Below, piece by piece: positions 3,975-15,885 of a DNA stretch of 15,885 bases. The notes under the pieces are model-generated. The model did no database searches. It saw only the letters and a list, made by a program, of their open reading frames with translations, and had not been told where the DNA came from. Position numbers and translations under genes: made by a program. The stretch comes from a virus (taxonomy: Duplodnaviria > Heunggongvirae > Uroviricota > Caudoviricetes): the IMG/VR virus record IMGVR_UViG_2534681991_000026; one strand, written 5' to 3'. How positions within the stretch are numbered: position 1 is the stretch's first letter; every line of letters begins with the position of its first letter.

Positions 3975-4309
3975 TTTTCCGCGCCCTCACTACAAAGAAT
4001 TTCAAGGCGTGTCCTGGCGGCATCTGGCAGCGGTTGCCCGATGATATTCAGTACACGCCCCGCCAGCGGCCCCGTATTGACCTTTATCCGACTGGTGGCG
4101 TTGATGTCCTTCCGGTAGCGTATCCATATCCTTACAGTTCCAGTCGCCAGCTCTGCACCTGATGAAATGGCCTCCTTGCTGCTGATCATGTTCACGCTTG
4201 CCCAGAGTGTGTGACCGTCCACCCACGTTTCGAGTATTTCGCCCGTCATGGCTCTGGTCTGTTTCAGGGTCTGAATCGTTACCCTGTCACGCAGTCGCCC
4301 TATGTTCAT
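3971..4309 (-). CDS. Head-tail joining / head closure protein
   Basis: Start taken at internal ATG (MNIGRLRDRVTIQ...) because it forms an ATGA overlap with the portal stop; family-typical N-terminal motif. The ORF track's 4351 start would overlap portal by 46 nt. Confidence 0.65.
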   Translation of the reverse strand: MNIGRLRDRVTIQTLKQTRAMTGEILETWVDGHTLWASVNMISSKEAISSGAELATGTVRIWIRYRKDINATSRIKVNTGPLAGRVLNIIGQPLPDAARTRLEILCSEGAEK

Positions 4310-5517
4310 TCCGGTTTTTCTCCCTCGCTGATTTTTACTTCCTGTTTCCATGCCTGGCTGAACTCATCACCACCATCACGCGGTGACAGTCCTTCACGTT
4401 CGCGGGCTTCGTTCGGACACATAACGCCGGATTTGATGCCGCGCTCATAGGTGGCAAAGCGTTCGCCAGGTGTGGCCCGTAACAGGTCCGCGCTGTCAAA
4501 CTCCACCTGATACCGGATACCAGGTACAGGCGAGGCCACCAGCAGGGCGTTTTTTATCTGCTGCTCAAAGTTCGCCAGCCACGGGCGCATCGTCATGGTG
4601 AGAAATGCGCGGCTTGCCTCGCTGAAATTGCTGTAGGTGCTGTTGCTGTATTCCTGCAAAAAAATCGGCGAGACGTTGAACATTCGGGCGATGTCTTCAA
4701 TGGTGAAGCGACGGGAGGCCAGCCATTCAGCATCCTGATTACTCATGCCCAGCTGCTGATAGCTCATACCCCCTTCAAGGATGGGCGTTTTTCCGGCGTT
4801 TCTGGCCCCTTTGTAGCGTTCCAGTGCGGCTAATGCCTGTTTGCCCTTCACGCCGTCCAGCCATTCGCCTGACGTGATAACCCCTGCCGCCATCATGCCA
4901 TCACGCATCACGCTCGCGCCGTGGCGTTGTTGGGCCAGCCCAAGCCCCAGCGATTCGCGGCAAATGGTTACAGGTGAGCGCCCCATAAAACCGTCATCCG
5001 TGGAGTAACGAAGGTGGAGAACCTCCCACGGTAAATAGTTGCGGGTGTTTCCGGTGTAAGCGTCAGTGATGCAGTAGCGCCAGTTGTGTTCTCCTGTCTG
5101 CTCCACGTTCACCGACTGCGGCGGGTAAGGATGTAAAGCCGCCGGAAAACCATCACGCCCCCACTGAATCACCGCGTAAGCATTACCGTTTAACAGGCAG
5201 TGGCGGATCATCATTCGCTTAAACTGGTAGGGAGTCTGCCACGCGTTCGGGCGCTCGTTGAGGATGTGATCGACCGGATGAGAATCAAGCCACTCGCGGG
5301 CCTCCTTCCCCTTCTCATTGCGTACCAGGTACAGGTAGCATGGCATAGTAGCCACCGCCTCAGAGATGACCGTGACGGCGTTCATGACGGCGGGGAGTGA
5401 TTCCGCTGTCCCCGATGATACGTACTCACCCGCCCCCGTGTTCGATGTGCCAGCCAGCGCCATAAATTCATCAAGCGTCATGCTGCGCTGCTCTTTTTTT
5501 CTTCTGAAAGGCCACAT
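4306..5517 (-). CDS. Portal protein, HK97 family
   Basis: 403 aa; size and position (after protease, before connector genes); GGGGGTG SD-like sequence 5 nt upstream of the ATG at 5517, which sits 1 nt after the protease stop. Confidence 0.8.
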   Translation of the reverse strand: MWPFRRKKEQRSMTLDEFMALAGTSNTGAGEYVSSGTAESLPAVMNAVTVISEAVATMPCYLYLVRNEKGKEAREWLDSHPVDHILNERPNAWQTPYQFKRMMIRHCLLNGNAYAVIQWGRDGFPAALHPYPPQSVNVEQTGEHNWRYCITDAYTGNTRNYLPWEVLHLRYSTDDGFMGRSPVTICRESLGLGLAQQRHGASVMRDGMMAAGVITSGEWLDGVKGKQALAALERYKGARNAGKTPILEGGMSYQQLGMSNQDAEWLASRRFTIEDIARMFNVSPIFLQEYSNSTYSNFSEASRAFLTMTMRPWLANFEQQIKNALLVASPVPGIRYQVEFDSADLLRATPGERFATYERGIKSGVMCPNEAREREGLSPRDGGDEFSQAWKQEVKISEGEKPE

Positions 5518-8633: not shown

Positions 8634-8939
8634 TCAGTGAAGCGATCCGGCGTTGTTCTTTTTCATCTCTTCCATCATTTTTTCAGTGAGCATTACGCAC
8701 TGAAAACCCATGTTTTTGATGTCTACGGGTTTCATGCCTTTGTCAGTGGATATCACAGGCAGAATATCCTGATACACATCGCGGTCAGGGTAACTAAGCA
8801 CACAAAGCGCCCATGATGCCACGGGTGAGGATCCTTCGTCTGTTTCAACCCACCAGCCTGGTGTAGCTGCGCTTATTTGCAGAATCGTGATCCGTCCGTT
8901 GTGCTTGTAAAATTTTTCACCAAATTTTGGTTCGCTCAT
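8634..8939 (-). CDS. Hypothetical protein (101 aa)
   Basis: ORF in operon context; 4-nt ATGA overlap with the upstream gene; no recognisable motif. Confidence 0.5.
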   Translation of the reverse strand: MSEPKFGEKFYKHNGRITILQISAATPGWWVETDEGSSPVASWALCVLSYPDRDVYQDILPVISTDKGMKPVDIKNMGFQCVMLTEKMMEEMKKNNAGSLH

Positions 8940-9250
8940 GATTCCACCTCTCCGGTTTTAACGTTGATGGTTGTTACCTGTTCCGCTTCGGCAATCTCCC
9001 GTTCTGTCAGCGTGGCAAAGTTTGCAGCTGCCGTTGTCATGAATGCGCTTATTAGTTCGGGATTCTCCTTCGCGTATCCTTCCCGTGTGTGGCGGTCTAT
9101 AACTTTGATTGCCACCTTTAGGGAAAGCTCTGTCATGTCTAACGCTTTATATTTTTGCTGTGTTCTGTCTCTGCGCATTTTGGTCATTTGTCGCCCCTGA
9201 TTCATGTTTTCGGTCGGCATGTTTGTTAAGTGATTTTGATGTATGCACAT
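8936..9250 (-). CDS. Hypothetical protein (104 aa)
   Basis: ATG at 9250 preceded by GAGGGGG about 9 nt upstream; first gene after the putative ori; no recognisable motif. Confidence 0.5.
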   Translation of the reverse strand: MCIHQNHLTNMPTENMNQGRQMTKMRRDRTQQKYKALDMTELSLKVAIKVIDRHTREGYAKENPELISAFMTTAAANFATLTEREIAEAEQVTTINVKTGEVES

Positions 9251-9289
9251 TTATTTTTACCCCCTCGTTTAAAAAGTTTTAGGTTGTGG

Positions 9290-9530
9290 TGCACCTCCTC
9301 TACCTCTCTACCTAATCATCTTTCAGGTCAGTAATGGCGCGGCTTTCAGATGGGTAGAGGGCTTTCGTGGCCCTCTACCCATCATCTACCCGCCCCTCAC
9401 AAACAACCTTAATCATGGTGGAGGGGGTAGAGGGCTTTTATTTGCCTTCTACCAGCCCCTCTACCCACTTATCATATTGAATAATGTATATTTATTTTCT
9501 TTAGGTAGAAGAGGTAGAGGGCTTTTGTCT
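9290..9530. repeat. Iteron array flanking an AT-rich stretch; putative replication origin
   Basis: At least 8 copies of the core GGTAGAG(GGC)/(GCC)CTCTACC in both orientations (about 9298, 9306, 9354, 9373, 9386, 9426, 9459, 9505, 9514), including a perfect 11-bp inverted pair GGGTAGAGGGC(9352-9362)/GCCCTCTACCC(9370-9380); AT-rich 9467-9503. Directly 3' of the primase gene. Confidence 0.6.
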
Positions 9531-9534
9531 AAAA

Positions 9535-11289
9535 TTATAAAAACGCGTCGCAATCCTCTGTTGTTGTCACATTGGTTTGCGTAAGTCCTTTAACCCTGCG
9601 CGTTATATATTCACATCCGTAAACTTTTGCCGCTGGCTTCATGGCCTTGCTGAAATCAGCCACGTTTAGCGGCTTGCTTCTTCCTGCGTATGCCATAAAC
9701 GCCAGATAGACGCGGTAAAGGCTGTTTCTGGTCGTGTACTTCACGGAATCGCCACCGCCACCCATCATCAGGCCGCGCGCTTCCTCCAGAAAATTCAGGA
9801 ACTGGCAAAACTCAATAACCGGATCCGTCTGTTGCTTTATTGCCAGTGCTTCATCACCGTCGCGCTGTTCCAGGAGTAAAGCCCGTGCCTTTTCAGGGTC
9901 GGCAAAGTTCGCCAGTAATCGGCGGATAATCACAGGGATTTCAGCCGCGACCTTCTCCGGCAAATCCTTGTCCTTTTCTGCCTCGCTAACGATATTGTCA
10001 AAGCGAAAAATAACCCGACGACGTGCCACGCCTCCGGCCCGTTCGGTGAATATCATCGGGTTGTTGTTGGTCGTCAGCACCACCGCCCTGATTACCGCCG
10101 TGAAACGCTTTTCATATTTCGGGTTAATTTCCACGGGGTCGCCGCCCGTGATTTTCTTGATGCCCGTTCCTTCGCCTGTATATTTCGGCTGGTCTGCCAG
10201 GACGATAAGACGACTCCCGACAACCTGCGCACGTCCACCAGCATCATCAAGCGATGTCATTTCAGCGCTTACCGTGTTCTGTTTCCCTGCCAGAAGGCTG
10301 GCTATGTGCGTGAATGTACTTTTACCGCTTCCGCCGTCTCCGGTGGCCTCAATAAACATCTGCCAGTCGTACCGGTTCGCCATAATCATGTACAGCGCGG
10401 CACATATACGCATCATCTTGCGCGGGTCTTTTCCGGCTGCGTGCTCAAGGCATTTATGAAAATTTGGCGCGTTATCGCGGATGTTCTCCCCTGGTGCTGG
10501 TGGCGTGTACTCAATACCGTTGTGCGTGGTGATCCAGTTCTCCGGCGTGTGCGGGGAAAATTCCCCCGTTTTCAGGTCAAGCGCACCATTGGCGAACGGC
10601 AACAAATCGCCGGACGGCTCGCCCATTGGTTCGGCAATAACTTTTAACGCTTCAACGGCGTTATTGATTACGCGCTTGCTGAAAGTGGCCCTGTGCTCTG
10701 AATAGATCGCCACCATTTCGCGGCTAAGTTCCATTGTGCTGACCGGACACCATAACCCGCCGCGCCATACGTGAACGATTTCACTTTCAGGATGTACGCA
10801 AACGCCATCAAAGCGATCGGAAAGCAGCTGAGCGCGTTCACTGTCCGCCATCTGCGAAAGTTGCGCCTTTTGCTTTACCGGAAGCTCAACGAACAGACCT
10901 TCAGAAAGATTCTGGCGCTCACGGGCCAGATATTCGCGCCAGTTCTCCACCTCCTGAACGTGCATTCCCTCAGGGTAAAAATTTGCATCCTGTACACCTG
11001 CCGCCGCCAGCTTCTGACCAATCGCCTTTATCATTACAGGTTCAAGATGTCCGGCCCTGAATATGCGTACTGATTTTCGGCCTTCCGGCACAATTTGCAG
11101 CTTATCCAGTTCGGATAACTGCTGATCCCCAAGCCACACAGGAGGCTCATTATCTCCGGCCATACGCGCGTCATGTTCCTGCCATTGTTTAGCGTGTGAC
11201 CAGGCATCACTACCCGCAAAAATAATGACTTCTGTTTCTTTGTGTTTTATGCCGCGTGACTGCTGTTTTACGTTCGGTGCAAGTTTCAT
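9535..11289 (-). CDS. Replication protein: P4-alpha-like primase/helicase
   Basis: 584 aa; N-terminal primase-like region and C-terminal NTPase with Walker A GDGGSGKST; typical of satellite and PICI replication modules; start overlaps the upstream gene (ATGA). Confidence 0.8.
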   Translation of the reverse strand: MKLAPNVKQQSRGIKHKETEVIIFAGSDAWSHAKQWQEHDARMAGDNEPPVWLGDQQLSELDKLQIVPEGRKSVRIFRAGHLEPVMIKAIGQKLAAAGVQDANFYPEGMHVQEVENWREYLARERQNLSEGLFVELPVKQKAQLSQMADSERAQLLSDRFDGVCVHPESEIVHVWRGGLWCPVSTMELSREMVAIYSEHRATFSKRVINNAVEALKVIAEPMGEPSGDLLPFANGALDLKTGEFSPHTPENWITTHNGIEYTPPAPGENIRDNAPNFHKCLEHAAGKDPRKMMRICAALYMIMANRYDWQMFIEATGDGGSGKSTFTHIASLLAGKQNTVSAEMTSLDDAGGRAQVVGSRLIVLADQPKYTGEGTGIKKITGGDPVEINPKYEKRFTAVIRAVVLTTNNNPMIFTERAGGVARRRVIFRFDNIVSEAEKDKDLPEKVAAEIPVIIRRLLANFADPEKARALLLEQRDGDEALAIKQQTDPVIEFCQFLNFLEEARGLMMGGGGDSVKYTTRNSLYRVYLAFMAYAGRSKPLNVADFSKAMKPAAKVYGCEYITRRVKGLTQTNVTTTEDCDAFL

Positions 11290-14667: not shown

Positions 14668-15885
14668 TTATTTTCTTCTGGCTACGGGTAGCGTGGTTAC
14701 GTTTTCATGTGCTCCCGCCAGTATCCCTAACCGCTCCGTCCACATATCCAGCGCATCACGTTTCGCATCCAGATAACGGGAATGGTTATAGACTCGTTGC
14801 ATCCCTGGCATCTGATGACCTGTAAGCTGCTCCACGACGTGAGGATCCGCGCCTAAATCGTTCAGCATCGTTGTAAAGGTGCGCCGGATGTCATGCAGTG
14901 ACCATTGAGGGTGTTTTAGCCTCCTGTGCGCTAATCTGCCGTACTGCGATACGCTGGCCTCCTGTTTCACTTCCCCCAGCAATAAGCCCGTGTGCCTGTT
15001 CTGCTCCACCAGCTTCATGACAAACGGCAGGATCGCTTCCGGTATGGGCCGGAATATTGCGACCTTCGTTTTGCTGTGCTCCTTCGGAACGGTCCATAGC
15101 ATTTCCGTAAAATCCCACTCCCCGATCTCCGATAACCTCAGTTCTACCGTTCTGGCACCGAAGACAATCAGGAGGCGGATTAACGCGACGTAGTAAGGGG
15201 AAAATATTTTTTTATCCAGTGCCTGCAATAACTCGCCAAGTTCTTTGGTGCTTAAGACACGCTCGCTTATATCCGGTTTTTTCCCAACGTCCGCAACGTT
15301 CAGATCGTCCAGAACGTTGCTGATTGCATAGCGCCGCCTACGGCAGAACTTAAGCGCCTGTTTGCACGCCTGTAGCACGAATCCGGCAGTAACAGGCGTT
15401 CGCTTTGCCACCTGGTCAAAACAAGCCAGCCAGTGCCGTAGCTCGCATTTATCCAGCGGCATAGCACCAATGTGCTGTATTACGTGATTATTAAGTCGCC
15501 TTTTCAGGGCGATATAATCCACGCGGTTTTCCTTTACGTAAGACTCAAGCCAGTAGGTAAGCGCATCGCCAACCGTTACGGGCTTTAACGCTTCCTGTAC
15601 GGTGTAATTCATCTCATGACGTGGATTTTTCCCCTCAGCCAGCCATGCGCGACACTGTGCGGCTTTTTCCCTGGCTGCTTTCAGGCTCAGATCAGGATAA
15701 CTTCCCAGCTTAATGCGTTCGGGTCGTGTCTCCCTTCCCGTTCCGGCCCTGTATGTGAAATACCATGTTAATTTCCCTGATGTTAAATATTTCACGCTCA
15801 GGTTTCCGCCATCACTATAAAACGTGTTTTTCTCAGCTGGCTTACCATGAAGTTTCCTTAGCAATGTATCGCTCAGTTTGTTCAT
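14668..15885 (-). CDS. int: Tyrosine recombinase / integrase, P4 family
   Basis: 405 aa; P4-type N-terminus (MNKLSDTLL...FYSDGGNLSV), catalytic-domain motifs (HDIRRTF, ...RVYNHSRY); start codon at the window edge, so the cognate att site is expected just beyond 15885. Confidence 0.9.
   Translation of the reverse strand: MNKLSDTLLRKLHGKPAEKNTFYSDGGNLSVKYLTSGKLTWYFTYRAGTGRETRPERIKLGSYPDLSLKAAREKAAQCRAWLAEGKNPRHEMNYTVQEALKPVTVGDALTYWLESYVKENRVDYIALKRRLNNHVIQHIGAMPLDKCELRHWLACFDQVAKRTPVTAGFVLQACKQALKFCRRRRYAISNVLDDLNVADVGKKPDISERVLSTKELGELLQALDKKIFSPYYVALIRLLIVFGARTVELRLSEIGEWDFTEMLWTVPKEHSKTKVAIFRPIPEAILPFVMKLVEQNRHTGLLLGEVKQEASVSQYGRLAHRRLKHPQWSLHDIRRTFTTMLNDLGADPHVVEQLTGHQMPGMQRVYNHSRYLDAKRDALDMWTERLGILAGAHENVTTLPVARRK

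Follow-up and report, generated by a model that had tools for sequence, protein, structure and literature searches.

A probable replication origin of P4 design directly after the initiator gene of a predicted capsid-forming PICI of Escherichia coli

Introduction

Iteron/Rep specificity pairs have been shown experimentally in SaPIs, and the iterons of plasmids are direct repeats of about 17–22 bp with regular spacing, accompanied by DnaA boxes. In PICIs of Gram-negative bacteria, the origin lies directly 3′ of the initiator, and in the E. coli representatives it consists of an AT-rich region between two iteron sets, 3′ of the initiator (Fillol-Salom et al. 2018, ISME J; PMC6092414). This was tested for EcCICFT073: a plasmid carrying its pri-ori fragment was maintained at the restrictive temperature, and the Δpri and Δori versions were impaired. 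The deletion of ori 'significantly reduced' colony numbers; abolition was not reported (PMC6092414).

In P4, the repeat cluster just after the alpha gene is annotated as crr, and ori is located 4.5 kb away (GenBank annotation of NC_001609). Read in the same orientation as the locus described below, P4 ori comprises two tandem copies of TGTTCACC, an AT-rich stretch of about 35 bp, one inverted copy and three direct copies.

The window considered here is the whole analysed stretch of DNA, 15,885 bp in length. It carries a repeat array (9299–9522) next to the gene of an initiator of the Pri-Rep type. The array is probably the vegetative replication origin (ori) of a capsid-forming PICI (probability about 0.88). 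The type, position and layout of such an origin in E. coli PICIs have been published since 2018 (PMC6092414). The window origin is a correct but ordinary finding, because its kind has already been described and was tested in a sister island with a 95% identical Pri-Rep. What is new is the equivalence of the layout to that of P4 ori, the replacement of the repeated word together with the winged helix of the initiator on a fixed scaffold, and the existence of two iteron flavours in E. coli with candidate residues for each.

The Host Element

All genes of the window lie on the minus strand and are read in one direction. They encode, in this order, a tyrosine integrase, Icd/Ash-like proteins, a DUF4222 protein and the 584-aa Pri-Rep; two small proteins, SSB and a PerC-like regulator; and an HK97-type capsid protein, prohead protease, portal, two head-tail connectors, HNH nuclease, TerS and TerL. 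No tail or lysis genes were found among the ORFs of the window. Judged by its gene content, the window is a capsid-forming PICI (phage satellite) of E. coli, since it possesses an integrase, a one-directional operon, pri-rep, a packaging module, a size within 10–16 kb and an attachment site.

A chromosomal island of STEC O103:H2 strains is 100% identical to the window, and 128 of 5,426 complete E. coli genomes contain at least 80% of the window sequence. A close variant, that of strain 2015C-3121, is inserted within tqsA, which is the attachment site of EcCIO42 and EcCIK1516 (supplementary table, PMC6092414). Between its capsid and PerC genes, the 2015C-3121 island departs from the window by about 360 bp, and its portal gene (L001 5416–6628) is annotated as frameshifted; the portal ORF of the window (4306–5517) is intact. 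By megablast, the gap behind pri-rep has a match in 444 complete E. coli genomes; among the 30 RefSeq matches listed, no annotated feature lies under the match.

The Repeat Array and the AT-Rich Stretch

GGTAGA occurs 11 times in the window, on both strands, and 10 of the 11 copies, in both orientations, fall within 9299–9518. A lone stray copy is found at position 15143, and there is no second cluster elsewhere in the 15.9-kb window. Dinucleotide-preserving shuffles of the whole window give 3.4 copies on average and 9 at most, and none of 200 reaches the observed number. For the exact heptamer GGTAGAG, all seven copies of the window lie within 9298–9519 (expected 0.82; 0 of 200 shuffles reach 7). 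Nine sites in the gap match GGTAGAGGGC with no more than two mismatches, four of them perfectly.

The array starts 13 nt past the stop codon of pri-rep (9535–9537) and is described here from this side. The primase-proximal iteron pair (9504–9522, plus strand) is the 19-bp tandem GGTAGAAGAGGTAGAGGGC, with GGTAGA at 9504–9509 and 9513–9518, 9 bp apart. It is followed by the AT-rich spacer (9466–9503, 38 bp, 84–86% A+T), the presumed DNA-unwinding element. Beyond the spacer lie the iterons GGTAGAGGGG (9460–9465, minus) and GGTAGAAGGC (9448–9453, minus), a degenerate copy with an iteron (9417–9431, plus; GGTGGA at 9417–9422, then GGTAGAGGGC at 9426–9435) and the iteron GGTAGATGAT (9385–9390, minus). 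A convergent iteron pair (9352–9380; cores 9353–9358, plus, and 9374–9379, minus) forms a perfect 11-bp inverted repeat with the arms GGGTAGAGGGC (9352–9362) and GCCCTCTACCC (9370–9380) and a spacer of 7 nt. Inside the array there is also a GC-rich conserved block, CAGTAATGGCGCGGCTTTCAG (9330–9350), and the distal end is formed by a second tandem pair (9299–9312, minus) with GGTAGA at 9299–9304 and 9307–9312. The iteron cores are 6–10 bp long, of mixed orientation and 8–12 bp apart within pairs.

The segment 9467–9503 contains 86.5% A+T compared with 49.5% in the whole window. The most AT-rich 36-mer of the window is 9469–9504, and its least stable 40-bp duplex by nearest-neighbour energy is 9469–9508 (z = +4.0). 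A single 8-of-9 match to the DnaA box is located at 9526; a host-factor motif scan of the region revealed no IHF, Fis-like or GATC sites.

An earlier note on this DNA had described the gap as an iteron-flanked AT-rich stretch with the layout of PICI origins. The perfect 11-bp inverted pair, the 19-bp tandem and the AT-rich stretch of about 37 bp (9467–9503) are all present as that note had it. Its count of at least eight copies of GGTAGAG(GGC) is right for the core (10) and for the near-matches (9), but it does not hold for the exact 7-mer (7). Iterons are indeed found on both sides of the AT-rich stretch, but the arrangement is lopsided, with two GGTAGA sites on the primase side and eight, plus the degenerate GGTGGA, on the far side. 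The gap length of 245 nt had to be corrected: the non-coding gap comprises 284 nt (9251–9534) if the next ORF begins at its first in-frame ATG, and 347 nt if it begins at its RefSeq start, 9187.

The start of this next gene (8936–9250, minus) is ambiguous between ATG 9250, which has a strong and highly conserved Shine-Dalgarno sequence, and 9187. RefSeq places the start at 9187 in the identical locus and uses the longer start for GF60 and Nissle. The match of the product to phrog_1231 is confined to residues 22–104. The leader (9248–9282, minus; Shine-Dalgarno GAGGGGG, ATG 9250) bounds the origin.

The Pri-Rep Initiator

The Pri-Rep gene (9535–11289, minus) encodes a protein with D5_N, an SF3-helicase P-loop (DUF5906) and a C-terminal winged helix resembling Pox_D5 and the P4 origin-binding domain (Pfam: D5_N 1.4e-13, DUF5906 7.2e-10, Pox_D5 1e-3). 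The match to TIGR01613 'primase_Cterm' (1.6e-29, 102.8 bits) is just below the curated cut-off of 108.7, and residues 177–432 match the SaPI primase-helicase structure PDB 7OLA (1.3e-13). Residues 141–580 are 39% identical to P4 alpha, the homology beginning at 141. The N-terminal part of about 150 aa (10840–11289, minus) has no Pfam or NCBIfam match; residues 1–150 match only phrog_2850 (unknown function) and phrog_864.

In RefSeq this protein is named 'DNA primase family protein', and the earlier description of the gene as a primase agrees with the family name. However, no catalytic primase domain was recognised in it by Pfam or NCBIfam. The zinc-finger/Toprim primase domain, which is present in P4 alpha and in the Morganella homologue L007, is absent. 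Since neither this nor another primase domain is recognisable, 'primase' is a family label here, and the recognisable features of Pri-Rep are those predicted for an origin-binding helicase. The recognisable domains do not account for the priming step, which counts against the reading as an origin.

The predicted origin-binding winged-helix domain covers residues 488–579 (9553–9828, minus), which phmmer aligns with residues 2–92 of the PDB 1KA8 chain (E 6e-8). This chain comprises 100 residues of the P4-specific primase and is the origin-binding winged-helix domain of P4 gp-alpha. The homology of the Pri-Rep domain to a solved P4 origin-binding domain is consistent with the earlier proposal that the array is of the type bound by a cognate initiator. 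Codons 544–547 (A-D-F-S; 9649–9660, minus), where the third helix of this domain begins, could encode the specificity residues. An AlphaFold model of residues 470–584, made without an alignment, has a pLDDT of 58 overall and of about 80 in helix 543–556; this model of the binding domain is weak and was used solely for placing that helix.

Comparison with Described Origins

The tested sister origin is that of EcCICFT073. In Nissle 1917, a Pri-Rep 95% identical to that of the window is followed by capsid and head-decoration genes, and the gene content of EcCICFT073 (c1499, c1500) is the same (PMC6092414). An exact match to EcoCFT073-pri-4c (…CTCAGGTAGACAGGGTAGACAGCCATTGCAACAAA…), a primer from the published knock-out work, is present in the Nissle gap; therefore, this gap represents EcCICFT073 sequence. 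The window gap aligns with this origin over its full length, with the GGTAGA cores in the same columns. Both are located directly 3′ of pri-rep and share the stop-proximal tandem pair, the AT-rich spacer and the GC-rich block. They differ in the iteron flank (GGTAGA-Y-A-G in EcCICFT073, GGTAGA-N-G-G(C) in the window), in the opposite orientation of one iteron beside the AT-rich spacer (window slot 9448–9453) and in the Pri-Rep residues N544/G547 versus A544/S547. EcCICFT073 is a cos-type PICI without terS, whereas the window island is capsid-forming and has its own HK97-type capsid, portal, protease and terminase. The layout ascribed to the gap by the earlier note is found in a homologous gap that is a published ori, tested by plasmid maintenance (PMC6092414); in the window, likewise a PICI, the gap is 3′ of the initiator and iterons lie on both sides of the weakest duplex.

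The P4 initiator likewise combines an SF3 helicase with an origin-binding winged helix of this type. The arrangement of P4 ori recurs in the gaps of the CFT073 type, of Serratia and of Morganella, and, with one site inverted, in the window; the repeat units of crr are unlike the window layout. The word is different (TGTTCACC in P4, GGTAGA in the window, with no TGTTCA in the window gap), the window origin follows the initiator gene directly instead of lying 4.5 kb away, no second crr-like cluster accompanies it, and alpha has the zinc-finger/Toprim primase domain that the window Pri-Rep lacks. We conclude from the motif layout that the window array is probably an ori of P4 design sited directly after the initiator gene, and not crr, because its layout matches P4 ori and the window has no second cluster.

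The SaPI ori is similar to that of the window in its position 3′ of rep, in the two iteron sets around an AT-rich region and in the island-encoded SF3-type initiator (PMC6092414), but its DNA sequence is unrelated and the origin-binding domain is different. The oriV of iteron plasmids (RepA family) has repeated initiator sites beside an AT-rich unwinding element as well. In contrast to it, the window has cores of 6–10 bp in both orientations and one 8-of-9 DnaA-box match, and its initiator is itself a helicase.

Conservation of the Scaffold and Replacement of the Word

For the analysis of conservation, 85 loci were collected from IMG/VR, GTDB genomes and RefSeq, in which the primase is at least 87.5% identical and the downstream flank is long enough to score. 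They contain 62 distinct 300-nt downstream regions, all of which (62/62) hold 7–11 GGTAGA copies at conserved positions. Absence of the repeats from homologous islands with the same primase, named in the earlier note as evidence against an origin, was therefore not observed. The iteron-core columns are more conserved than the others (mean majority fraction 0.90 versus 0.76 in the 62 regions); the Mann-Whitney p of 4e-7 is indicative only, because the sequences are related. The block 9330–9350 (CAGTAATGGCGCGGCTTTCAG) is invariant in a 4-way alignment and at least 90% conserved in the 62 GGTAGA-type origins. It is also present in a lineage of 80% identity, and in the TGTTCA-type relatives the same slot is occupied by a second AT-rich stretch. 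The leader 9248–9282 is at least 98% conserved (62 sequences).

A protein homologue search returned E. coli copies of 96–98% identity only, and a search of genome contigs returned three loci. When IMG/VR was scanned a second time, with an alignment of 5 sequences as the seed, primases from 41% to 100% identical to that of the window were obtained. The repeated word of a locus was taken as the commonest 6-8-mer in the 350 nt past the stop codon. In each locus there is one single word, in 6–12 copies, within these 350 nt. Primases 70–100% identical to that of the window, with a winged helix of the form …SLYR[VL]Y[LM]AFM…V[ANG][DE]F[SG]KAM…, are followed by GGTAGA. Primases of 41–54% identity have a YLYHAYL-type winged helix and are followed by GGTGAACA (the P4 word), ATGAACAC or GGTATAC.

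Between the window and the relatives of 41–54% identity, the sites agree in orientation and, within a few bases, in position. Counted from the stop codon, with arrowheads for orientation, the sites of the window are 17<, 26<, the AT-rich spacer, 70>, 82>, 104<, 145>, 156>, 177<, 223> and 231>. Those of the CFT073 type are 17<, 26<, the spacer, 72>, 94<, 105<, 114<, 145>, 156>, 178<, 224> and 232>, and those of a locus with a 54% identical primase and the word GGTGAACAGT (L155) are 15<, 25<, the spacer, 70>, 89<, 108<, 144>, 154>, 184< and 230>. In all relatives, irrespective of the word, the proximal pair is equally far from the stop codon, and the distal tandem pair is kept as a pair in all of them. 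At the corresponding place, an AT-rich spacer of 35–40 bp is present in the CFT073-type, Serratia and Morganella gaps, in L155 and in P4 ori.

Joint change of word and binding domain on a constant scaffold is the pattern that initiator-binding sites should display. This family-wide covariation of word and winged helix is the strongest new evidence obtained. The earlier suggestion that the iterons would define replicon specificity is partly supported by it at the level of the family; at the fine scale, linkage confounds the covariation, as discussed in the next section.

Two further observations concern the relatives. In four loci with primases of 70–71% identity (L149–L152), the core module (tandem pair, AT-rich spacer, then inverted and three direct iterons) is shifted away from the stop codon by about 190 nt and is preceded by 5–6 extra iterons; therefore, the origin modules are rearranged in this lineage. 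The 16.5-kb record LR881103 ('Escherichia phage vB_KppS-Ant', L089) contains an integrase, a 41% identical Pri-Rep, an origin with GGTGAACAC iterons and a capsid/portal module; this content suggests a capsid-forming PICI that was deposited under a phage name.

Two Iteron Flavours in E. coli

The GGTAGA-type origins of E. coli are represented by two flavours. Flavour G, R-GGTAGA-N-G-G-(C/G), occurs in 34 distinct origins including the window, and flavour CT, R-GGTAGA-Y-A-G, in 28 including EcCICFT073. The change is concerted across all iteron copies of an origin. Among 174 variable columns of Pri-Rep, the strongest association with flavour is shown by 544 (A versus N) and 547 (S versus G), with a normalised MI of 0.92. 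Both positions are inside the 1KA8-like domain, at the start of the predicted helix 543–556. N544/G547 goes with GGTAGA-Y-A also in lineages of 71–80% identity, and one primase that has the exact C-terminal domain of the window, in spite of an overall identity of just 84%, is followed by the flavour of the window.

Synonymous sites in codons 543–575 (on to the stop), however, track flavour as strongly as the replacements do, and the small gene across the gap is partially associated with it (MI up to 0.68); the DUF4222 gene, 1.8 kb away, is not (MI ≤0.21). The signal at synonymous sites and in the neighbouring gene implies that a linkage block from codon ~543 through the origin explains much of the association. 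A code of one residue for one base ('S547 reads G at iteron position 8') was considered and rejected, as it fails in the L161/L164 pair.

Two loci deserve mention. A metagenome contig (IMGVR_UViG_3300029303_000153, L014/L092) combines A/S residues and window-type codons 543–553 with a CFT073-type origin, and from codon 572 on it is of the CFT073 type. Either natural recombination has brought together a reader and sites that do not match, or the metagenome assembly is chimeric. An isolate genome (IMG taxon 2703718778) carries two islands, L042 and L070, one with CFT073-type and the other with window-type iterons; as the only genome in the sample with two such islands (n = 1), it is an anecdote.

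It is plausible that the flavours represent separate specificity groups. That these groups are switched by the two residues (A544/S547 versus N544/G547), the family keeping its scaffold and swapping word and reader, is a tentative proposal that we would at present rather doubt than assume.

Alternative Functions of the Array

Since the P4 cluster directly 3′ of alpha is crr, which bears the same iterons as ori 4.5 kb off, and the helicase and C-terminal domains of Pri-Rep are 39% identical to alpha, the array could be an auxiliary cis-acting element of this kind, with initiation at another site. This is very improbable. Apart from the stray copy at 15143 the window has one GGTAGA cluster; the succession of a tandem pair, an AT-rich spacer of 38 bp and then inverted and direct sites reproduces P4 ori and not the crr units; and the EcCICFT073 pri-ori fragment alone supports plasmid maintenance (PMC6092414). 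The repeats could also serve as operators for a regulator of the island (the PerC-like protein, the DUF4222 protein or the small downstream protein) controlling the SSB, PerC and capsid genes. The position of the gap upstream of a co-directional gene block, the partial association of the adjoining small gene with the iteron class and the very conserved leader 9248–9282 would fit such a function. It has as little likelihood as a crr-like role: a scan of 8900–9700 found no sigma-70-like promoter or terminator, DUF4222 shows no association, and the layout is that of an annotated origin, P4 ori. It also recurs in front of differing downstream genes (a capsid gene in vB_KppS-Ant), with the winged-helix initiator always upstream. 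As the downstream genes differ among loci, the covariation of word and winged helix is hard to reconcile with an operator for another protein or with an RNA structure.

The latter, in the form of a terminator, attenuator, processing site or small RNA in a polycistronic transcript, could be supposed because the perfect 11-bp inverted repeat with its 7-nt loop (9352–9380) would give a strong hairpin. No T-run follows the hairpin on either strand, and there is no terminator-like site; a terminator or attenuator was dropped as a candidate after the empty promoter and terminator scan. In Rfam, at permissive thresholds, no family reaches threshold, and only sub-threshold microRNA models fall on the inverted repeats. 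The CFT073-type origins keep the complementarity of the 6–8 bp cores only, with a loop of about 16 nt and no compensatory changes; therefore, two facing sites are conserved and not a hairpin, and a role in RNA is scarcely credible. An equally slight chance is left to a packaging (cos/pac) site for the small terminase of the island. The window does encode TerS, TerL and HNH, and terminase-binding sites are often short repeats, but this proposal fails because the same array occurs in islands without terS (EcCICFT073; PMC6092414) or with unrelated packaging modules; moreover, its place is always behind the initiator gene and in no case behind the terminase genes. A vegetative origin is the preferred reading of 9299–9522.

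Proposed Mechanism and Significance

As the vegetative origin of the island, the array could function as follows. After induction and excision, Pri-Rep, an SF3/D5-type hexameric helicase by its domains, would bind the GGTAGA iterons via its C-terminal winged-helix domain. Protein bound on both sides of the AT-rich stretch (two tandem sites on the gene side, eight or nine on the far side) would melt 9466–9503. The helicase could then load itself at the melted spacer, and the island would replicate independently of the host initiator. The binding of Pri-Rep to the GGTAGA sites and the melting at the AT-rich stretch are inferred from the arrangement of sites and domains.

The added biological value of this finding is modest, and current views are not overturned by it. 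It marks the probable cis-acting site needed for the satellite's own amplification after induction. For initiators of this family it also provides an annotation rule: the origin should be sought within 300 nt past the gene, as 9–12 copies of one 6-8-mer around an AT-rich stretch of 35–40 bp. The two close flavours of E. coli constitute a small testable system for shifts in replicon specificity. If they are indeed separate specificity groups, several PICIs could share one cell without cross-activation or competition for each other's initiator.
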